NCBI RefSeq assembly: GCF_050920415.1
Contig: NZ_CP169309.1
Length of the DNA: 64,000 nt
From: Escherichia coli
Lineage (GTDB): Bacteria; Pseudomonadota; Gammaproteobacteria; Enterobacterales; Enterobacteriaceae
Direction: 5' to 3' (one strand)
The translations under genes were made by a program, and so were the position numbers. Every line of letters starts with the position of its first letter. Position 1 is the first letter of the stretch. This document shows positions 53,985 to 64,000 of the stretch, in pieces. The notes under the pieces were generated by a model, which saw nothing but the letters and a program-made list of their open reading frames with translations, searched no databases and was not told the DNA's origin.

Positions 53985-54398
53985 ATGATGGATATTAAAT
54001 TAATCTCTTTGCAAAAACATGGGGATGAGCGTGGTGCATTAATTGCTCTTGAAGAGCAACGAAATATACCTTTCGAAGTCAAAAGAATATATTACATACT
54101 CGAGACTCTTAAGGGAGTAAGACGCGGATTTCATGCGCACAAGGTTACTCGTCAGTTAGCTATTGTAGTCAAGGGAGCTTGTAAATTTCATCTGGATAAT
54201 GGTAAAGAAACAAAGCAGGTGGAACTTAATGATCCAACAATTGCGTTGCTGATAGAACCCTATATATGGCATGAAATGTATGATTTTAGTGATGATTGTG
54301 TGCTGCTTGTAATTGCGGATGATTTCTATAAAGAGTCTGATTATATACGCAATTATGATGATTTTATTAGAAGAGTAAATTCAATTGAGAATTCATAA
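53985..54398 (+). CDS. fdtA: dTDP-4-keto-6-deoxyglucose 3,4-isomerase (FdtA/QdtA-type, WxcM-like cupin)
   Basis: 137 aa; [13 protein letters not shown]...[11 protein letters not shown]...RGFHAHK is typical of FdtA-type isomerases. FdtA versus QdtA cannot be separated by eye. Confidence 0.7.
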
Positions 54399-54852
54399 GC
54401 TAAGTGACGTCCAGACAACATCAATTGGTGATGGAACAACTATCTGGCAGTTTGTTGTAATACTAAAAGGTGCTGTAATTGGTAATAATTGCAACATCTG
54501 TGCAAATACCTTGATTGAAAATAACGTTGTAATTGGTAACAATGTCACAGTCAAAAGCGGTGTGTATATTTGGGATGGCGTTAAAATAGAGGATAATGTT
54601 TTTATTGGTCCTTGTGTAGCATTTACAAATGATAAGTATCCTCGCTCTAAAGTCTATCCTGATGAATTTTTGCACACAATAATACGCAAAGGAGCATCAA
54701 TAGGTGCTAATGCAACCATCCTGCCAGGAATTGAAATTGGTGAAAAAGCAATCGTTGGTGCGGGGAGTGTCGTAACCAAAAATGTACCGCCATGCGCAAT
54801 AGTAGTAGGTAATCCAGCTCGATTTATTAAATGGGTAGAGGATAATGAATAA
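54385..54852 (+). CDS. fdtC: dTDP-3-amino-3,6-dideoxyhexose N-acetyltransferase (hexapeptide repeat, FdtC-like)
   Basis: 155 aa; hexapeptide repeats (IGNNCNI..., IGNNVTV..., IGANATI...); lies between the isomerase and the aminotransferase. Confidence 0.65.
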
Positions 54853-55951
54853 AATTGATTTTTTAGATCTTTTTGCAATTAACCAGCGACAGCACAAAGA
54901 ATTAGTCTCTGCGTTTAGTAGGGTGCTAGATTCTGGTTGGTATATCATGGGCGAAGAACTTGAGCAGTTCGAGAAAGAGTTCGCAGAATACTGTGGAGTT
55001 AAGTATTGCATTGGTGTAGCAAATGGCCTTGATGCGTTGATACTAGTATTGAGGGCATGGAAAGAACTCGGCTATCTAGAAGACGGTGACGAGGTATTAG
55101 TACCGGCAAATACATATATTGCTTCTATTCTTGCTATAACAGAGAACAAACTTGTTCCTGTTCTTGTTGAACCAGATATAGAAACTTATAATATTAATCC
55201 TGCTTTAATTGAAAATTACATTACGGAAAAAACTAAAGCAATATTACCGGTTCACTTATATGGTCTATTGTGCAATATGCCAGAAATTAGTGCAATCGCA
55301 AGAAAATATAATCTGTTGATTCTTGAAGATTGTGCACAAGCACATGGTGCAATACGTGATGGTCGCAAAGCTGGAGCTTGGGGGGATGCTGCAGGATTTA
55401 GTTTTTATCCAGGAAAAAACCTTGGAGCTTTGGGGGATGCGGGAGCTGTTACTACAAATAATGCAGAATTATCCTCAACTATAAAAGCTTTGCGAAATTA
55501 TGGGTCACATAAGAAATATGAAAATATTTATCAGGGATTGAATAGTCGATTGGATGAACTGCAAGCAGCCTTATTGCGTGTAAAAATCCATACATTACCG
55601 GAAGATACTGCGATTCGGCAAAGGATTGCTGAAAAATATATTCGTGAAATAAAAAACCCTGCGATTACGTTACCAGTGTACGAAGGCCAAGGTGCGCACG
55701 TTTGGCATTTATTTGTAGTAAGAATCGCTAATCGTGAAAAATTCCAGTCATACTTATCAGAGAAGGGTATCCAAACCTTAATTCACTATCCATTACCACC
55801 CCATAAGCAGCAAGCATATCAAAATATGTCTAGTCTTAGCCTTCCAATTACTGAGCAAATTCATGATGAAGTCATTTCTTTACCTATAAGTCCGGTAATG
55901 AGTGAAGATGATGTCAATTATGTAATCAAAGTGGTCAATGATTACAAGTAA
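54845..55951 (+). CDS. fdtB: dTDP-3-keto-6-deoxyhexose 3-aminotransferase (DegT/DnrJ/EryC1 family, FdtB-like)
   Basis: 368 aa; PLP-aminotransferase family features; gene context. Confidence 0.7.
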
Positions 55952-57222: not shown

Positions 57223-58278
57223 TTGAAATTGAAAATAATTATACCTGTCTTAGGATTTGGCAGGGCTGGTGGTGAAAGAGTTCTTTCTAAGCTGGCAACT
57301 GAATTGATGAATTATGGACATGATGTAAGTTTTGTTGTTCCAGATAATAGAACTAATCCATATTATGCTACCACAGCAAAAATCGTCACGAGTAAATCTA
57401 GTCAAAACCGTGTAAAAATATTGAGAATCATTAAAAATTACTATAATCTGTGGCGTAAATGCATAGAATTAAATCCTGATGCTGTAGTTGCTAGTTTTCA
57501 TTTGACTGCCTATCTTGTCGCATTATTACCAATCACCCGTCGTAAGAAATATTATTATATTCAGGCGTATGAAGTTAATTTTTTTGATAATATAATATGG
57601 AAATTAATAGCGGGTTTAACATATTATTTACCGCTTAAAAAAATACTAAATAGTCCTAATTTGCTTCCTCATAAACATGATGATTTTATAGGAGTAGTTC
57701 CTGCAGGAGTAGATTTAAACGTTTTCTATCCGAAACCATCAAATAGGTTATTAAATGGTCACACATCAATAGGGATTATTGGTAGAAAAGAGAAGCACAA
57801 AGGAACTAGCGAAATTATTTCAGTATTGTGTTCACTGGAAAATAAAGTTGGAATTATAATTAATATTGCGATCTATCTTGAAGAAGTTGATAAGGAGCGT
57901 TTAATTGCTGCCGGGTTTCAGGTTAATTTTTTTCCGATTACTTCTGATTTAGAATTGGCATCTTTTTATCGAAGCAATGACATCATGATTGCAGCTGGGT
58001 TAATTGAAGATGGCGCTTTCCATTATCCTTGTGCTGAATCAATGGCTTGTGGTTGTCTTGTTATTTCAAATTATGCGCCACTTACTGAAACTAACAGTGT
58101 ACTTAAATTAGTCAAGTTTGATGCTTGCAAACTTGGTAAAGCAATTAATCTTTGTCTCAATCTTGACCTAGAAGAAAAAAGCAAAGAAATCCAATCTAAT
58201 ATTTCTGTGTTGAATAAATATGACTGGAAAATTGTTGGTGAAACTTTCAATAGTTTATTGTTAGATGCAAATAAATAG
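57223..58278 (+). CDS. O-antigen glycosyltransferase (GT4-like)
   Basis: 351 aa; E-x7-E-like region EDGAFHYPCAESMACGCLVI. The track start is TTG at 57223; a second TTG at 57229 has better spacing from the agagg Shine-Dalgarno. Confidence 0.7.
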   Translation: MKLKIIIPVLGFGRAGGERVLSKLATELMNYGHDVSFVVPDNRTNPYYATTAKIVTSKSSQNRVKILRIIKNYYNLWRKCIELNPDAVVASFHLTAYLVALLPITRRKKYYYIQAYEVNFFDNIIWKLIAGLTYYLPLKKILNSPNLLPHKHDDFIGVVPAGVDLNVFYPKPSNRLLNGHTSIGIIGRKEKHKGTSEIISVLCSLENKVGIIINIAIYLEEVDKERLIAAGFQVNFFPITSDLELASFYRSNDIMIAAGLIEDGAFHYPCAESMACGCLVISNYAPLTETNSVLKLVKFDACKLGKAINLCLNLDLEEKSKEIQSNISVLNKYDWKIVGETFNSLLLDANK

Positions 58279-58298
58279 TATACGTTGATGGGGAAAAT

Positions 58299-58856
58299 AT
58301 GAATATTGTTAAAACTGATATTCCAGATCTGATCGTTCTTGAACCAAAAGTGTTTAGTGATGAACGCGGCTTTTTTATGGAGAGTTATAATCAGATTGAA
58401 TTTGAGAAGACAATAGGAAGGCACGTAAATTTTGTTCAGGATAATCATTCAAAATCTAGTAAAGGCGTACTACGTGGGTTACATTATCAATTAGCACCGT
58501 ATGCACAGGCTAAATTAGTTCGATGTGTTGTAGGTCAGGTATTTGATGTTGCTGTTGATCTTAGAAAAAATTCACCAACGTTCAAAAAATGGTTTGGAAT
58601 AACCCTTTCCGCAGAAAATAAACGACAATTATGGATACCTGAAGGATTTGCTCATGGTTTCTTGGTGACCAGTGATGAAGCTGAGTTCATTTATAAAACA
58701 ACGAACTACTATGCTCCTGGTCATCAGCAAGCAATTATTTACAATGATCCTATTTTAAACATCGATTGGCCTTTCTGCAGTAGTGCTCTGTCATTATCGC
58801 AAAAAGATCAAGAAGCAAAATTATTTTCAGAATTATTGGACAGTGAACTGTTCTAA
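58299..58856 (+). CDS. rmlC: dTDP-4-dehydrorhamnose 3,5-epimerase
   Basis: 185 aa; FSDERGFFMESY...LRGLHYQ...IPEGFAHGF; separated from rmlBDA by other genes. Confidence 0.9.
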   Translation: MNIVKTDIPDLIVLEPKVFSDERGFFMESYNQIEFEKTIGRHVNFVQDNHSKSSKGVLRGLHYQLAPYAQAKLVRCVVGQVFDVAVDLRKNSPTFKKWFGITLSAENKRQLWIPEGFAHGFLVTSDEAEFIYKTTNYYAPGHQQAIIYNDPILNIDWPFCSSALSLSQKDQEAKLFSELLDSELF

Positions 58857-58923
58857 TAAAGTGTGCCACCTTATCCGTCTGAAGGATAGGTGGTTGCTTA
58901 TATTTTTTGAGTATGTTTGTATA

Positions 58924-59886
58924 ATGACAGAAAATAGTCCGAAATATAAACACGATAAAAGCTTAATAAGTTTTATCTACTTATTTTTTATATTTACACT
59001 TATTGTAGGCTTCATTATCGCAAATACCCAGTTTTTGGGGCGAAGTAGAGACTATGATAATTATATACAGATCTTTTCTGGTGAAGAAGGGGAGGGGGTT
59101 CTTGAATTATTTTATCGCGGATTGATGTTAATAACGACCAGCTATGAAATTATCATTTTTATAATTTTAACATGTTCTTTTTTTATAAAGGCAAGGTTTC
59201 TTGCTAACTATTCGCGTAATTTTTCAGGCTTGACCTTATTCTTTGTTTATTATGCAAGCGTTGCACTTTGGGTTTTAGATTATACTCAATTCAGAAATGG
59301 TCTATGTATTTCCATTTTAATGTTTTCCGTATACTATTTATTTATAAATAAACCGACTTATTTTTATTTCTCGCTATTATGTGCAATTGCAACTCATTGG
59401 TCTGCTTTGCCTTTTTTGCTTTTATATCCTTTTGTCTATTCAAAAAAAATAAGACACCTTGGTTATTTTTGTTTCAGTATTCTTGTTTTGATTGCGATCT
59501 CAGGAGAAGGAAAAGAGATCATTTCTTTTATAAGAAATTTTGGAGTGGGACAAAAAATAGGAAACGAAGCTGGTGTAAATTTAATAAATTCATTATCCCT
59601 TACCGCTATTTTCTGGTTTGTTATTAGTTACATATCAAGCATTGGAAATGAAAGGAGAAATTTAAGACTTTTCTTTTGTTATGGTGTCATGCAATACGTG
59701 ACTTTTAGCCTTTTCTCTCTACCTGTTATGGCTTTCCGTATTTTGGAAATGTATTTTTTCCTTATGTTAACCATTGGGGTGTTTATTAAGCAAAAAAAGA
59801 ATTATTATTTTGTTTTTTGCAAAGTGTTAATTTTATTGTATCTAACATACTATTATCATATGGTTTTTGGAGTGATTAATGTGTAA
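58924..59886 (+). CDS. wzy: O-antigen polymerase Wzy (candidate)
   Basis: Polytopic membrane protein. The ORF track frame (58783) overlaps rmlC; the internal ATG at 58924 (MTENSPKYKHD...) avoids the overlap. Very AT-rich. Confidence 0.6.
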   Translation: MTENSPKYKHDKSLISFIYLFFIFTLIVGFIIANTQFLGRSRDYDNYIQIFSGEEGEGVLELFYRGLMLITTSYEIIIFIILTCSFFIKARFLANYSRNFSGLTLFFVYYASVALWVLDYTQFRNGLCISILMFSVYYLFINKPTYFYFSLLCAIATHWSALPFLLLYPFVYSKKIRHLGYFCFSILVLIAISGEGKEIISFIRNFGVGQKIGNEAGVNLINSLSLTAIFWFVISYISSIGNERRNLRLFFCYGVMQYVTFSLFSLPVMAFRILEMYFFLMLTIGVFIKQKKNYYFVFCKVLILLYLTYYYHMVFGVINV

Positions 59887-60766
59887 GGCTAAGGTGTTGG
59901 CTATAATTGTTACTTACAACCCGGAAATTATTCGTTTGACGGAATGTATTAACTCTTTAGCCCCACAAGTTGAGAGAATAATTCTTGTAGATAATGGCTC
60001 AAATAATAGTCATTTGATAAAAAATATCATTATTAATAACCTTGAAATTATTTTGCTTTCGGAAAACAAAGGCATTGCATTTGCTCAGAACCATTGTGTT
60101 AAGAAGGGTCTGGAAGCAAAAGAGTTTGACTATTTATTTTTCTCAGATCAGGATACTTGCTTTCCTAGCGATGTTATTGAAAAACTTAAGAGTACATTTA
60201 CGAAAAATAATAAAAAAGGTAAAAATGTTGCTTGTGCTTCTCCTTTTTTTAAAGACCATCGTTCAAATTATATGCATCCGTCAGTCAGCCTAAATATTTT
60301 TACGAGTACAAAAGTTATATGTAGTGAAGTAGACGATGATCTTTATCCCTCGCATGTTATTGCTTCTGGGATGTTAATGTCTCGCGAGGCATGGCGCGTC
60401 GTCGGACCATTTTGTGAAAAACTCTTTATAGACTGGGTTGATACAGAATGGTGTTGGCGTGCATTAGCTAATAGTATGATTATTGTTCAGACACCATCAG
60501 TCATCATTTCTCATGAACTTGGGTATGGGCAGAAAATTTTTGCTGGTCGATCTGTTACAATACATAATTCTTTCAGAAATTTTTATAAAATACGTAATGC
60601 AATATACTTAATGCTGCATTCAAATTATAGCTTCAAGTATCGTTATCATGCTTTTTTTCATGCGACAAAGAATATTGTATTTGAAATTTTATATTCGAAA
60701 GAAAAATTAAATTCACTGAAGGTTTGTTTTAAAGCTGTACGTGATGGTATGTTCAATAATTTTTAA
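59879..60766 (+). CDS. O-antigen glycosyltransferase (GT2; rhamnosyltransferase-like)
   Basis: 295 aa; IIVTYNPE...VDNGSNNS...FSDQDTCF (GT2 DxD-type motifs). Confidence 0.7.
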   Translation: MCKAKVLAIIVTYNPEIIRLTECINSLAPQVERIILVDNGSNNSHLIKNIIINNLEIILLSENKGIAFAQNHCVKKGLEAKEFDYLFFSDQDTCFPSDVIEKLKSTFTKNNKKGKNVACASPFFKDHRSNYMHPSVSLNIFTSTKVICSEVDDDLYPSHVIASGMLMSREAWRVVGPFCEKLFIDWVDTEWCWRALANSMIIVQTPSVIISHELGYGQKIFAGRSVTIHNSFRNFYKIRNAIYLMLHSNYSFKYRYHAFFHATKNIVFEILYSKEKLNSLKVCFKAVRDGMFNNF

Positions 60767-60796
60767 TACAAAAATAGTTAGGCTCAAGGTGTTTAA

Positions 60797-61873
60797 ATGG
60801 AAGAAAATAATATGAAGACGGTCGCTGTAGTTGGCACAGTGGGTGTTCCTGCTTGTTATGGTGGGTTTGAATCACTTGTTCAGAATCTAATTGATTATCA
60901 ATCTGATGGTATACAATATCAGATATTTTGCTCTTCAAAAAAATATAATAAAAAATTAAAAAATTATAAAAATGCAGAATTAATCTATTTGCCGATAAAT
61001 GCCAATGGCGTCTCTAGCATAATTTATGACATTATGTGTTTAATTATTTGTTTATTCAAAAGGCCAGATGTTGTTTTAATATTGGGGGTATCTGGTTGTT
61101 TATTTCTACCAATTTATAAACTATTTTCAAAATCAAAGATCATTGTCAACATCGATGGGCTTGAATGGCGTAGAAATAAATGGGGAACGTTTGCTAAGAA
61201 ATTTCTCAAAATATCTGAGGCGATATCTATTAGAATAGCTGATATTATCATTTCAGATAATCAAGCAATAGCTGATTATGTGGAAAATAAGTACAATAAA
61301 AAAAGCGTAGTTATAGCTTATGGGGGAGATCATGCTACTAATCTTAGTACACCGATAGACGATGATCAAAAAAAAGATGGTTATTATTTGGGGCTTTGTA
61401 GGATAGAGCCTGAGAATAATATAGAAATGATTTTGAATGCCTTCATTAATACAGATAAAAAAATTAAATTTATGGGTAATTGGGATAATAGCGAGTATGG
61501 GCGCCAGCTAAAAAAATATTATTCAAACTATCCAAATATCACACTACTAGAACCTAACTATAATATCGAAGAACTTTATAAACTAAGAAAAAATTGCCTT
61601 GCATACATTCATGGACACTCGGCTGGTGGAACAAACCCTTCTTTAGTTGAAGCGATGCATTTTAATATTCCTATTTTTGCTTTCGATTGTGACTTTAATC
61701 GTTACACAACTAATAATTTAGCTCATTACTTTAATGATTCTGAACAACTGACCTCATTAGCAGACAGTTTGTCTTTTGGAAATCTTAAATGTCAAGTATT
61801 AGATTTAAAAAAATATGCTGAAGATATGTATAACTGGAGGCATATAGCTGCTATGTATGAATCTATTTATTAA
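60797..61873 (+). CDS. O-antigen glycosyltransferase (GT4-like with N-terminal DUF1972-like region)
   Basis: 358 aa; E-x7-E-like NPSLVEAMHFNIPIFA. Confidence 0.7.
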   Translation: MEENNMKTVAVVGTVGVPACYGGFESLVQNLIDYQSDGIQYQIFCSSKKYNKKLKNYKNAELIYLPINANGVSSIIYDIMCLIICLFKRPDVVLILGVSGCLFLPIYKLFSKSKIIVNIDGLEWRRNKWGTFAKKFLKISEAISIRIADIIISDNQAIADYVENKYNKKSVVIAYGGDHATNLSTPIDDDQKKDGYYLGLCRIEPENNIEMILNAFINTDKKIKFMGNWDNSEYGRQLKKYYSNYPNITLLEPNYNIEELYKLRKNCLAYIHGHSAGGTNPSLVEAMHFNIPIFAFDCDFNRYTTNNLAHYFNDSEQLTSLADSLSFGNLKCQVLDLKKYAEDMYNWRHIAAMYESIY

Positions 61874-62054
61874 ACGCATTAACAATAATATAATTGACCT
61901 TATATAGCTATCAGAGTAAAAATGTAACGCTGATTTTTTTGTTAAATGATGCGCATTATATATTTAATGATTAAAATACTCTTGATCAAATAAAACTATT
62001 TAATTAATAATGTAAAATTTCATTATGCTATTTAAGATGTGAAAAATAACTTAA

Positions 62055-62125
62055 ATAAATGATGGGATATATTTATATTATCCCGGTTATAGACAAGCCC
62101 AGGGAAAGATCATCAGAAGTACACT
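62055..62125 (+). mobile_element. Fossil fragment homologous to the 5' end of the ISAs1/H-repeat transposase gene
   Basis: tgatgggatatatttatattatcccggttatagacaagcccagggaaag is ~83% identical to 62258..62306 of the downstream transposase gene. Confidence 0.55.
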
Positions 62126-62244
62126 TTTTGTACTAAATAATTCGCATTTTATGTTTAAAAATATGAGATATTCCTCATTACCTGAAGCTGTTTTTTATTG
62201 CTTATACATGATCAAATACTCCTTACATAATTAAGGAGAACAAA

Positions 62245-63381
62245 ATGGAACTTAAAAAATTGATGGAACATATTTCTATTATCCCCGATTACAGACAAGC
62301 CTGGAAAGTGGAACATAAATTATCGGATATTCTACTGTTGACTATTTGTGCCGTCATTTCTGGTGCAGAAGGCTGGGAAGATATAGAGGATTTTGGAGAA
62401 ACACATCTCGATTTTTTGAAGCAATATGGTGATTTTGAAAATGGTATTCCTGTTCACGATACCATTGCCAGAGTTGTATCCTGTATCAGTCCTGCAAAAT
62501 TTCACGAGTGCTTTATTAACTGGATGCGAGATTGCCATACTTCAGATGATAAAGACGTCATCGCAATTGATGGAAAAACACTCCGGCATTCTTATGACAA
62601 GAGTCGCCGTAAGGGAGCGATTCATGTCATTAGTGCGTTCTCAACAATGCACAGTCTGGTCATCGGACAGATCAAGACGGATGAGAAATCCAATGAGATT
62701 ACAGCCATCCCTGAACTTCTTAACATGTTGGATATTAAAGGGAAAATTATCACAACTGATGCGATGGGTTGCCAGAAAGATATTGCAGAGAAGATACAAA
62801 AACAGGGAGGTGATTATTTATTCGCTGTAAAAGGAAATCAGCGTCGGCTTAATAAAGCCTTTGAAGAAAAATTCCCACTGAAAGAATTAAATAATCCAGA
62901 GCATGACAGTTATGCAATTAGTGAAAAGAGTCACGGCAGAGAAGATATCCGTCTTCATATTGTTTGCGATGACCCTGATGAACTTATTGATTTCACGTTT
63001 GAATGGAAAGGACTGAAAAAATTATGCGTGGCAGTCTCCTTTCGCTCAATAATAGCAGAGCAAAAGAAAGAGCCCGAAATGATGGTCAGATATTATATCA
63101 GTTCTGCTGATTTAACCGCTGAGAAGTTTGCGACAGCGATTTGAAATCACTGGCACGTGGAGAATAAGCTGCACTGGCGTCTGGACGTGGTAATGAATGA
63201 AGACGATTGTAAAATAAGAAGAGGAAATGCAGCAGAATTATTTTCTGGGATACGGCACATTGCTATTAATATTTTGACGAATGATAAGGTATTCAAGACA
63301 GGATTAAGACGTAAGATGCGAAAAGCAGCCATGGACAGAAACTATCTCGCGTCAGTCCTTGCGGGGAGCGGGCTTTACTAG
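62245..63381 (+). pseudogene. ISAs1-family (H-repeat-associated) transposase gene interrupted by a single in-frame TGA at 63142..63144
   Basis: ORF track shows 62245..63144 and 63157..63381 in the same frame. Read through the stop they give ~378 codons, typical of H-repeat/ISAs1 transposases (...[29 protein letters not shown]...). Confidence 0.8.
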
Positions 63382-63453
63382 TCCTTCCTCGCTCAGTGAC
63401 AGAATATTGAATGAATAGCATTAAAATTATTAAATAATATGGTTTAATTCGAC

Positions 63454-64000
63454 ATGAACTTTAAGAATATAATTAGAATAATACTACCTTTTTTTATTTT
63501 CTTGAGTATTTTACTTTACTCAGGAAGGGCGGATAGTGTTTTGTTATTTACTATCGAATACACACTTGCAAGTATGGCAATCTTTCTGATAAAAAGAAAG
63601 TTTATAAGCAATATCTTGTGGGGGATTTATCTCTCAATTTTAGGTGTACAGGCAGCATCGCTATTTAGTTCAGGACAATATTTGATGCCTCTTGCCTTGT
63701 CGAATGCTGCAGAAGTTGAATCGCTAGGCATTGGCGAGGTAATCAAGGTTTTTTCTATTTTTATTTTATTTGTTATAGTTTCATTCGTTACGATGCCTTC
63801 TGGTGCTCTAGTCGGCCGTATTAAATATTATAAATTTAATTTTTTCTGTATAGTATTATTGCTTGTGTGTTCTTTCATAAGCACGGGACCGGTATATGCT
63901 TTTTATGAAACAGCAAAATTGTACTATTTACAGCAAACCTTTAAGCCTAGTGAGAAGATCGGTGATGCCGGGAAATCTTTTTTAAAAACAAGTGTTTTTA
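63454..64000 (+). CDS. 3'-truncated ORF encoding a polytopic membrane protein of unknown function
   Basis: ATG at 63454, open to the window end (182 codons, no stop), so absent from the ORF track. MNFKNIIRIILPFFIFLSILLYSG... with >=4 hydrophobic helices; AT-rich. Confidence 0.55.
   Translation, partial: MNFKNIIRIILPFFIFLSILLYSGRADSVLLFTIEYTLASMAIFLIKRKFISNILWGIYLSILGVQAASLFSSGQYLMPLALSNAAEVESLGIGEVIKVFSIFILFVIVSFVTMPSGALVGRIKYYKFNFFCIVLLLVCSFISTGPVYAFYETAKLYYLQQTFKPSEKIGDAGKSFLKTSVF

Follow-up and report, generated by a model that had tools for sequence, protein, structure and literature searches.

The open frame at the right-hand edge of the analysed Escherichia coli DNA (a stretch of 64,000 nucleotides, referred to here as the window) is, virtually without doubt on sequence grounds, the start of wekS, which closes the O-antigen cluster of E. 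coli O2/O50 on the gnd side. Its intact product is predicted from sequence and structural models to be a five-TM LtaS-type enzyme of the alkaline-phosphatase superfamily, with the LtaS-type phosphoglycerol transferases as nearest relatives, and the copy in the source genome is very probably a pseudogene. This reading as a whole (start of wekS, predicted LtaS-type enzyme and presumed inactivated copy) is held with good confidence. The gene itself is already known, being annotated in RefSeq and named in GenBank.

The frame starts at the ATG at positions 63454-63456 (+ strand) and is still open at position 64000, comprising 182 codons plus one base. An in-frame TAA is located just 5' of this ATG (63445-63447), which is therefore the earliest possible start. 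At the composition of the frame, stop codons would represent ~7.5% of random codons, and the probability of 182 stop-free codons by chance was calculated as ~7e-7. The first-pass annotation had described this frame as running to the window end and absent from the ORF track, and both statements were confirmed on the sequence; the last + strand ORF of the list ends at 63381, and the wekS frame is missing from it because ORFs extending past the end of the source are left out by the lister. The low GC content pointed out there was also reproduced (33.1% for 63454-64000 versus 49.1% for the whole window), and it is like that of the rest of the cluster.

The NCBIfam search with the 182-aa fragment alone returned zero matches. 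Since the membrane anchor cannot be classified by itself, a full-length allele was needed for classification. The gene had been considered unresolvable from the partial sequence, but near-identical genomes supply the DNA downstream. Over 601 nt, identity was 100% to two complete genomes and 99.5% to ~60 others, and in all of them the gene was found in the O2/O50 cluster, with ISAs1 on one side and gnd on the other. RefSeq names the product of this near-identical DNA "LTA synthase family protein" or sulfatase-like hydrolase/transferase. As read in these genomes, intact wekS has 1629 nt and encodes 542 aa, and positions 63454..64000 (+) contain its 5' part (codons 1-182 of 542), as indicated by the open frame, the near-identical annotated DNA and the position of the Pfam domain. 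The designation wekS goes back to GU299792, which PMC5293828 cites.

The gene order of the cluster is galF, rfbBDA, fdtA/C/B, the O2/O50 wzx and wzy, glycosyltransferases, ISAs1, wekS and gnd. The position first assigned to the frame, between an IS remnant and gnd, was correct: a 72-nt spacer (63382..63453, +, delimited by sequence scan) separates the stop codon of the ISAs1 transposase from the wekS ATG, and gnd begins 135 nt past the end of wekS in the near-identical genomes. An O50 type was ruled out for the window; its FdtB lacks the His->Arg change relative to NC101, and by the published criterion the window is therefore O2-type.

The part of WekS encoded in the window is the N-terminal membrane anchor only, which has five helices. 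Four of them are strong by Kyte-Doolittle hydropathy: TM helix 1 (residues 6-24; 63469..63525, +; hydropathy 2.17), TM helix 2 (residues 28-46; 63535..63591, +; 1.91), which is followed by a cytoplasmic KRK loop, TM helix 4 (residues 96-114; 63739..63795, +; 2.62) and TM helix 5 (residues 129-147; 63838..63894, +; 2.15), which leads into the linker to the periplasmic domain. The corresponding helices of the AlphaFold (AF2) model span residues 3-22, 26-44, 93-112 and 126-142, respectively. TM helix 3 (residues ~49-73; 63598..63672, +) is moderately hydrophobic and falls under the Kyte-Doolittle threshold; it was provided by the AF2 model (helix 49-73, pLDDT ~90). Hence, the hydrophobic product with several TM helices that had been anticipated was recovered, with four helices from hydropathy and the fifth from the model. 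In an alignment of 34 family sequences, Q66 and S69 (both in TM helix 3), G74, L80, N84 and G92 are the sole invariant residues within the window, and they form a conserved motif that covers the end of this helix and the periplasmic loop (63649..63729, +). The K/R-rich loops at residues 47-49 and 122-127 are consistent with an N-in, C-out topology. WekS thus combines the five-helix anchor and the extracytoplasmic C-terminal domain by which LtaS-type proteins are recognised.

Analysis of the full-length protein with Pfam revealed a Sulfatase domain (PF00884) at residues 195-479 (E 3e-26), beyond the window edge. Two further matches were weak and corresponded to related families of the alkaline-phosphatase superfamily, Sulfatase being the only significant one (E below 0.001). 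When the profile was searched against PDB sequences, the best matches were VP1736 (4e-22), Bacillus subtilis LtaS2 (7e-16), LtaP (4e-12) and LtaS (1.5e-11). Foldseek ranked the AF2 model of WekS (pLDDT 81, pTM 0.79) against these proteins in the same order, followed by the five-TM protein PbgA/YejM and, lower, by EptA and MCR-1. The catalytic set of intact WekS comprises E203, the H240-T241-A-A-T244 motif, H370 and the D421-H422 pair. These residues are invariant across the 34 homologues and align to the SLES, HQT, SNH and GDH motifs of LtaS, which suggests that E203, D421 and H422 are metal ligands, H370 the catalytic His and T241 or T244 the candidate nucleophile.

An additional O-antigen polymerase or transferase had been proposed for this frame, and such an identity would suit a multi-helix membrane protein within an O-antigen cluster; moreover, wekS is labelled as a glycosyltransferase gene in PMC4013041. 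However, no glycosyltransferase, Wzy/EpsG or GT-A/GT-B domain was found by Pfam, Sulfatase being the only significant match, and both the fold and the catalytic residues are those of the LtaS-type phosphotransferases. The cluster, in addition, already encodes wzy and three glycosyltransferases apart from wekS. Sequence and fold thus refute a polymerase or glycosyltransferase identity, the probability of which is negligible. A genuine sulfatase, or a hydrolase of another kind, is also a highly improbable identity for WekS, in spite of the name of the Pfam family and the 'arylsulfatase' labels of some database entries. The C/S-x-P-x-R formylglycine motif is absent from all 542 aa (the equivalent site reads HTAATFRG), sulfatases appeared far below the LtaS-type proteins in the profile search against the PDB, and membrane anchors of five helices are a typical trait of the lipid-head-group transferases.

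Comparison with known systems is in agreement with an LtaS-type assignment. Among the sequence and fold matches of WekS, LtaS and LtaP (PDB 2w5q, 2w8d, 4uoo and 4uop) are, after VP1736, the best characterised, and they share with WekS five N-terminal helices, the extracytoplasmic sulfatase-fold domain, the Glu that binds metal, the nucleophile motif with its Thr, the His and the Asp-His pair. Identity is only 16-19%, however, and these are Gram-positive proteins, whereas the host of WekS is Gram-negative, lacks lipoteichoic acid and carries wekS in an O-antigen cluster; a polymerising activity of the LtaS kind is not expected of WekS. The nearest solved structure is that of VP1736 from Vibrio parahaemolyticus (PDB 3lxq; Foldseek E 2e-17, 20% identity), a Gram-negative protein with an LtaS-like periplasmic domain, which gives no clue to the function of WekS because it is uncharacterised. 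PbgA/YejM (LapC) shows the same layout of five TM helices plus periplasmic sulfatase fold and was aligned over its full length by Foldseek (ranks 5-7), but WekS scored 18 bits with the YejM model of NCBIfam, against a cut-off of 825. YejM is an essential regulator of LPS and lacks part of the catalytic set; WekS, by contrast, is dispensable and has retained all of it.

The two top NCBIfam matches of WekS are models of OpgB (MdoB), the phosphoglycerol transferase I of E. coli (E 5e-9 and 1e-7). OpgB is anchored in the inner membrane, has a periplasmic domain and decorates periplasmic glucans, with phosphatidylglycerol as donor. As with every NCBIfam match of WekS, the scores were far under the curated cut-offs (35.5 versus 572 bits for NF009027 and 29.9 versus 574 bits for NF003000), and OpgB is longer (703-763 aa versus 542 aa); the two proteins are not orthologues.

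By analogy with LtaS, OpgB and GacH, intact WekS would act in two steps. The phospho-alcohol head group would first be moved from a phospholipid of the inner membrane to a Thr, with formation of a covalent intermediate; phosphatidylglycerol is the most likely donor and would yield sn-glycerol-1-phosphate. A hydroxyl of a glycan in the periplasm would then receive the group, the flipped O2 O-antigen being the most likely such glycan. Glycerol phosphate from phosphatidylglycerol may be the group transferred, although this choice is tentative and homology does not settle the donor. Phosphoethanolamine taken from phosphatidylethanolamine, as in EptA, MCR-1, CptA and the phosphoethanolamine transferase acting on the O-antigen of Shigella flexneri, is an unlikely alternative that shares with WekS the superfamily, the layout of anchor plus periplasmic domain and the general mechanism (Thr nucleophile, lipid head-group donor). 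MCR-1 and EptA were among the Foldseek matches (ranks 22 and 45), CptA gave a weak match (E 0.0018; 16.9 versus 404 bits), and phosphoethanolamine is a known modification of the S. flexneri O-antigen. Nevertheless, these proteins occupied lower ranks in every search: LtaS, LtaP and VP1736 clearly outranked EptA and MCR-1 in the sequence-profile search and in the fold search alike, the best NCBIfam matches were the OpgB models, and Pfam did not find the EptA-type N-terminal domain in WekS.

Phosphoglycerol transfer, tentatively preferred for the donor step, leaves the acceptor to be considered. The O2 O-antigen is a possible acceptor, an assignment held a little more cautiously than that of the donor. 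What had been proposed, an accessory membrane enzyme of the O-antigen locus, stands in its first part; we infer the O-antigen-modifying role, for which no matching O2 or O50 substituent has been published, the published repeat units of O2 and O50 containing neither glycerol phosphate nor phosphoethanolamine. No experimental or functional study of WekS was found in the literature. The missing phospho-substituent would agree with action on another periplasmic acceptor (osmoregulated periplasmic glucans, LPS core/lipid A or ECA), the position in rfb being historical. Relatives with 37-42% identity, located outside polysaccharide loci (beside cpxP/fieF in Serratia, beside dksA/cobW in Methylobacillus and, with 41% identity, on a small Acinetobacter plasmid rather than in a K locus), point in the same direction, as does the comparable pgt1 gene of A. 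baumannii, which leaves the capsule structure unchanged. Against this rather doubtful reading, orthologues with 45-55% identity share the slot of last gene before gnd: with E. coli and four other enterobacterial clusters, one of them IS-free and O2-like, five rml-containing O-antigen clusters have it (the genomes with such orthologues include Salmonella, Enterobacter and Rahnella). The link to the O-antigen is favoured because this conserved slot is otherwise hard to explain.

For an enzyme without a reported product, the best functional precedent is, by analogy, GacH/SccH, which by description parallels wekS as an LtaS-family enzyme encoded within a rhamnose-polysaccharide cluster. Its product, sn-Gro-1-P on the streptococcal rhamnose polymer, was overlooked by decades of structural work. 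Unlike WekS, GacH has eleven membrane helices, belongs to a clade separate from LtaS and is Gram-positive. Another likeness by description is Pgt1 of the A. baumannii K loci, whose phosphoglycerol-transferase gene is located, like wekS, at the distal end of the locus. The pgt1 gene is present or absent between otherwise identical K loci, has 'no defined role' and has no matching substituent in the solved structures.

The intact wekS alleles, present on at least 1000 contigs each, are under purifying selection, as judged from their sequences. Between the two O2 allele groups dN/dS was 0.128 overall and 0.025-0.04 in codons 241-420.

The copy in the window belongs to a different, rare haplotype. 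Three diagnostic SNPs were used in the haplotype comparison (all on the + strand), i.e. T at 63494 (gene nt 41, C14F), G at 63531 (gene nt 78) and A at 63839 (gene nt 386, S129N), and at all three the window agrees with the frameshifted haplotype represented by loci L001 and L004 rather than with NC101, an O2 strain whose wekS is intact. Five differences in 14,601 positions separate the window from L001. All seven loci of this haplotype have lost one A from the tract at gene nt 917-923 (A7->A6), a site equivalent to ~64370, ~370 nt beyond the window end. The first-pass annotation had named an early frameshift or stop in the full-length sequence among the observations that would speak against its reading, and a frameshift was indeed found, at codon ~306, in the seven loci. 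The frameshifted product has 314 aa and retains the membrane anchor, E203 and T241/T244, but it lacks H370, D421 and H422 and should for this reason be catalytically dead. Because the frameshift site lies outside the window, the pseudogene status of its copy is deduced from its relatives. It is very probable because all seven haplotype loci are A6 and because the repaired protein is absent: the 542-aa protein of this haplotype, repaired in silico, had zero matches among ~15 billion sequences. In addition, A243V was found in this haplotype at a column that is invariant in the family alignment, and the ratio of non-synonymous to synonymous changes relative to NC101 was 7:5; both fit a relaxed constraint.

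It is quite improbable that wekS is intact (A7) in the genome of the window and encodes a working 542-aa enzyme, the A6 form of its relatives being a later event or an artefact. The frameshift site is beyond the window, and a private SNP at 61306 separates the window from the seven A6 loci. None of the complete genomes in the collection is identical to the window, the closest two being at 3-5 differences. Bases lost from homopolymers are a well-known error of 454 and nanopore reads, and some of the A6 calls could therefore be wrong; within wekS itself, the broken alleles of TUM13773 and ETEC1717 resemble homopolymer sequencing errors. However, the A6 form was present in 7 of 7 haplotype loci, and the 314-aa product was found on 36 contigs from several sources (NCBI, ENA and Logan) and sequencing eras, accessions from 2011-12 included. 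Over 6 kb, the haplotype occurs in 2 of 5426 complete genomes, both A6. The missing repaired protein, the A243V change in an invariant motif and the 7:5 ratio likewise argue against an intact gene.

Inactivation of the copy is also preferred to the reading of the A-tract as an on/off (phase-variation-like) switch, or to a slippage bypass that would give some full-length enzyme. Either is very improbable, even though the same A7->A6 loss was seen on five or more haplotype backgrounds. The tract consists of plain codons (GAA-AAA-AAT, E-K-N), and the E. asburiae orthologue does not have it; on the allele-B background A6 was seen in a single accession versus at least 1000 intact contigs, and neither A8 nor reverted forms were found in the lineage of the window. 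Seven A's make, moreover, a short run for slippage at a high rate in this species.

For this window the result carries little weight, since it concerns the start of an already annotated gene, most likely in a dead copy. The gene itself is of wider interest: wekS is LtaS-like, evolves under purifying selection and occurs in O2-type and several other rhamnose-containing clusters, yet published O-antigen structures do not account for it. The O2 serogroup is clinically important in ExPEC and APEC, and O2 is also a component of ExPEC glycoconjugate vaccines. If WekS decorates the O-antigen, the surface charge of O2 strains would vary with a single A-tract, and recognition by antibodies, phages or antimicrobial peptides might vary as well. 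In the fullest form of this proposal, intact WekS would decorate the O2 O-antigen in the periplasm with phosphoglycerol (or phosphoethanolamine), a modification so far undetected and probably labile or sub-stoichiometric, and its repeated natural loss through slippage at A7 would create WekS-on and WekS-off forms of O2, with the lineage of the window fixed 'off'. This scenario is speculative and, in all its parts together, rather unlikely.

Some observations were also made on the surroundings of wekS. The ISAs1-family (H-repeat) transposase gene upstream (62245..63381, +) is a pseudogene, with a CGA->TGA nonsense change at codon 300 (63142-63144). It is intact in NC101, and the nonsense codon is common to the window and the lineage with the frameshifted wekS. 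A general decay of the cluster, as the PGAP label of fdtC as a pseudogene could indicate, was ruled out: the fdtC ORF is uninterrupted and identical to that of NC101, which bears the same PGAP label. The DUF1972 glycosyltransferase gene (60797..61873, +) is located directly upstream of wekS in IS-free relatives, with a gap of 36 nt in one such locus (L021). The possibility that wekS was carried as cargo by the IS was discarded, since in IS-free orthologous clusters wekS comes straight after the glycosyltransferase gene. The 72-nt spacer contained neither a clear Shine-Dalgarno sequence nor enriched promoter-like sites, and nothing was enriched over shuffled sequences when positions 61800-64000 were scanned for promoters and terminators. 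An inverted-repeat search for the IS ends gave no convincing terminal repeats. The 5' end of the IS transposase gene is found a second time, incompletely, at 62048..62101 (+), with 86-89% identity to 62249-62303; this copy is the remnant of an older IS.

The frame on the + strand that runs from 63454 to 64000 opens at its first possible start, the ATG at 63454-63456, with an in-frame TAA upstream at 63445-63447, and contains 182 codons without a stop up to the final base of the window. With ~7.5% stop codons expected at this base composition, such a run would occur by chance with a probability of ~7e-7. Its GC content is 33.1%; the neighbouring O-antigen genes have 33.5% and the window as a whole 49.1%. 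The open frame and hydrophobic product described in the first-pass annotation were thus confirmed. The frame had been called unlisted because the ORF lister drops frames that run off the source; the last + strand entry of the ORF track ends at 63381.

Two complete E. coli chromosomes match the final 601 bases of the window at 100% identity and ~60 more do so at 99.5%; a second allele group was found at ~88%. The 147 matching genomes all carry the gene in single copy on the chromosome. It is wekS, which in every genome examined closes the O2/O50 O-antigen cluster (galF, rfbBDA, fdtA/C/B, O2/O50 wzx, GT4, rfbC, O2/O50 wzy, GT2, DUF1972 glycosyltransferase, ISAs1 (H-repeat) transposase, wekS, gnd). 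RefSeq labels the intact gene 'LTA synthase family protein' (1629 nt, 542 aa; WP_019842891.1 in NC101) and the split gene 'sulfatase-like hydrolase/transferase'. The name wekS is used in the O2 reference cluster GU299792, and an O1-variant cluster ends with a copy that is 91% identical (PMC5293828). Since it is already annotated and named, the feature is not novel.

The encoded part of the protein is very hydrophobic, with four strong helices by hydropathy at residues 6-24, 28-46, 96-114 and 129-147, to which the structure model adds a fifth (residues 49-73). Loops rich in K/R (KRK at 47-49; R122, K124 and K127) alternate with acidic or neutral ones, which fits a predicted arrangement of five helices with the N-terminus inside and the C-terminal domain in the periplasm. 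In the intact protein, residues 195-479 match the Pfam Sulfatase domain (PF00884, E 3e-26). The window ends at residue 182 and therefore encodes nothing beyond the membrane anchor and the first part of the linker. Six residues of this part (Q66, S69, G74, L80, N84 and G92) are invariant in a family alignment of 34 sequences that includes homologues down to 35% identity. They lie at 63649-63729, where helix 3 ends and the next periplasmic loop follows, and may form part of a lipid-binding, possibly lipid-donor, site.

The family was assigned by searching a WekS profile against all PDB sequences. The best matches were VP1736 (E 4e-22), B. subtilis LtaS2 (E 7e-16), Listeria LtaP (E 4e-12) and Listeria LtaS (E 1.5e-11), followed by true sulfatases at E 1e-8 and weaker. 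Foldseek with the AlphaFold model (pLDDT 81, pTM 0.79) returned the same order, with VP1736, LtaP, the 5-TM PbgA/YejM and LtaS on top, MCR-1 in 22nd and EptA in 45th place. In NCBIfam, the two models for OpgB, phosphoglycerol transferase I, matched best, but their scores (35.5 and 29.9 bits) fall far short of the equivalog cut-offs of 572 and 574. In the profile alignments E203 corresponds to the Glu of the LtaS motif 'SLES', N239-H240-T241 to 'HQT', H370 to 'SNH' and D421-H422 to 'GDH'; all of these are family-invariant, as are T244, R246 and R249. The C/S-x-P-x-R formylglycine motif is absent from WekS, which is therefore not a true sulfatase. The gene seen in the first-pass annotation is real, the last of the cluster before gnd, and its placement there as a membrane enzyme accessory to the O-antigen locus was correct. 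The polymerase or glycosyltransferase offered as another possibility is wrong, given the LtaS-like family, fold and catalytic residues. The same results contradict the listing of wekS among glycosyltransferase genes (PMC4013041).

The most fitting description of WekS is that of an orphan LtaS-like transferase. Its chemistry is most likely head-group transfer by the LtaS/GacH mechanism, as summarised in the GacH paper. By this analogy, a threonine would attack an inner-membrane phospholipid at its head group and form a covalent phospho-enzyme intermediate, from which the group would pass to a periplasmic sugar hydroxyl. Phosphatidylglycerol is the most likely donor. Transfer of phosphoglycerol is our tentative assignment, held at a little under even chances, and a PEtN donor is considered improbable. 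The O-antigen is a possible acceptor, proposed with slightly more reserve than the transferred group; some other acceptor is unlikely, although less so than the PEtN donor. In the published structures the O2 and O50 repeat units have a common Rha/GlcNAc main chain, with a Fuc3NAc branch in O2, and no phospho-substituent is described in either (PMC7685785). Two precedents show that this is not decisive. The LtaS-family protein GacH, from a streptococcal rhamnose-polysaccharide cluster, adds sn-Gro-1-P, which was missed through decades of structural work (GacH paper). In A. baumannii, the 'phosphoglycerol transferase' gene pgt1 lies at the edge of ~100 of 237 K loci with 'no defined role', and KL2 and KL81 differ solely in its presence, yet have an identical capsule structure (PMC9676051). 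No experimental work on WekS was found in the literature; its function in intact O2 strains would be a reasonable small project, to which the window contributes nothing.

Comparison of the O2 allele groups (NC101 versus HM670, ~88% nucleotide identity) gave a dN/dS of 0.128 overall and 0.025-0.04 over codons 241-420, and each intact allele was present in at least 1000 contigs. Homologues with 46%, 46% and 45% identity to WekS occupy the last position before gnd in rml-containing clusters of Salmonella enterica (L010), Enterobacter asburiae (L014) and Rahnella aquatilis (L022), respectively. Selection, contig counts and orthologues in the same slot are evidence that intact wekS is probably a working, O-antigen-linked gene. 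The enterobacterial genome GCA_040775625.1 (L021:1-9647) carries an O2-like cluster (fdtA/C/B, wzx, GT4, rmlC, wzy, GT2, DUF1972-GT) without any IS, in which a WekS homologue (55% identity) lies 36 nt after the glycosyltransferase gene. From this arrangement and the other orthologues it follows that wekS has long belonged to clusters of this type, that the IS of E. coli was inserted later, and that wekS is not its cargo. The FdtB of that genome is 82% identical to that of the window. More distant relatives (37-42% identity) were found by cpxP in Serratia and by dksA in Methylobacillus, and an Acinetobacter relative is carried by a small Rep3 plasmid, so an O-antigen locus is not the general setting of the family. 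The plasmid-borne relative (Acinetobacter baumannii, L012:1957-3528, 41% identity) adjoins TraG-like and integrase genes, which shows that this enzyme family has mobile members.

Over the final 14.6 kb of the window, strain MFDS1022581 (L001) differs at 5 positions; over its final 6.6 kb there are 3 differences from strain N96 (L004), compared with 65 mismatches plus gaps for NC101. In both relatives wekS is 1628 nt long and is annotated as two CDSs (314 and 217 aa), a split caused by deletion of a single A in the A7 run that spans gene nt 917-923 (codons GAA-AAA-AAT, E-K-N). The run is equivalent to ~64370-64376, ~370 nt past the window end (L001:14971-14976, A6; L002:6971-6977). The three in-window positions that separate the frameshift haplotype from NC101 (gene nt 41, 78 and 386; window 63494, 63531 and 63839) all carry the frameshift-haplotype base. 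Five further assemblies with the exact 314-aa product were A6 without exception; three of them differ from the last 3.5 kb of the window by 1-2 mismatches, and two have indels upstream of wekS. Over 58000-64000 the window haplotype was found in only 2 of 5426 complete genomes, both A6. That wekS is nevertheless intact here is a small remaining doubt: the site lies outside the window, a SNP at 61306 is private to the window, and homopolymer deletions may be sequencing artefacts. The 314-aa product of the window-like haplotype occurs in 36 contigs (NCBI, ENA and Logan), 2011-12 accessions included, and the 542-aa protein repaired in silico (A6 to A7) was absent among ~15 billion sequences in which both intact reference alleles were present. 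Versus NC101, the haplotype has 7 non-synonymous and 5 synonymous changes; it also carries A243V within the invariant H-T-A-A-T nucleophile motif (codon 243, L001:14781-14783, beyond the window); the ratio is as would be expected after inactivation, and A243V is consistent with relaxed constraint following the frameshift. The truncated product retains the anchor, E203 and T241/T244 and loses H370, D421 and H422; it should therefore be inactive. Read from its relatives, wekS is with high probability a pseudogene in the source genome. A frameshift in the full-length sequence, which the first-pass annotation had named as evidence against its reading, is thus very probably present.

At least five haplotype backgrounds carry this deletion: one identical to NC101 (226 contigs with the truncated 314-aa protein, which is the same on the A357G background), NC101 with A357G (two strains), NC101 with C6T/G519A (one strain), the window-like background with 12 substitutions, and allele B (a single nr accession). 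Of the ~63 complete genomes that carry the A-type allele, ~9 have a disrupted copy, two of these (TUM13773 and ETEC1717) with different homopolymer deletions that are possibly assembly errors. Allele B and the Salmonella orthologue share the A-tract, which is missing in E. asburiae. The recurrence points to repeated natural loss of wekS, and we read the tract as a probable warm spot for mutation within a dispensable gene, not a dedicated switch.

The neighbouring ISAs1 transposase gene (62245-63381), intact in NC101 (378 aa), has a CGA to TGA nonsense change at codon 300 (63142-63144). This copy is dead, and the nonsense codon, shared with the wekS frameshift haplotype, is a marker of that lineage. 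A second, partial copy of the transposase 5' end lies at 62048-62101, upstream of the IS, with 86-89% identity to 62249-62303; it is the remnant of an earlier ISAs1 insertion. Three ISAs1 fragments are present at this site in HM670. The FdtB of the window (54845-55951) differs from that of NC101 only by V294I and L305S; a His to Arg change reported to separate O50 from O2 (PMC7685785) was absent in this comparison, and the cluster is therefore O2-type by that criterion. The fdtC acetyltransferase gene (54385-54852) is called by PGAP as two 'incomplete' pseudogene fragments in MFDS1022581 and NC101. Its ORF is uninterrupted (TTG start, 155 aa), with the same product in the window and NC101, and the label seems to be a quirk of annotation rather than a sign of decay. 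The longest wzy ORF (58783-59886) starts at the GTG at 58783 (367 aa), and the RefSeq O2/O50 polymerase start is equivalent to 58924 (320 aa).
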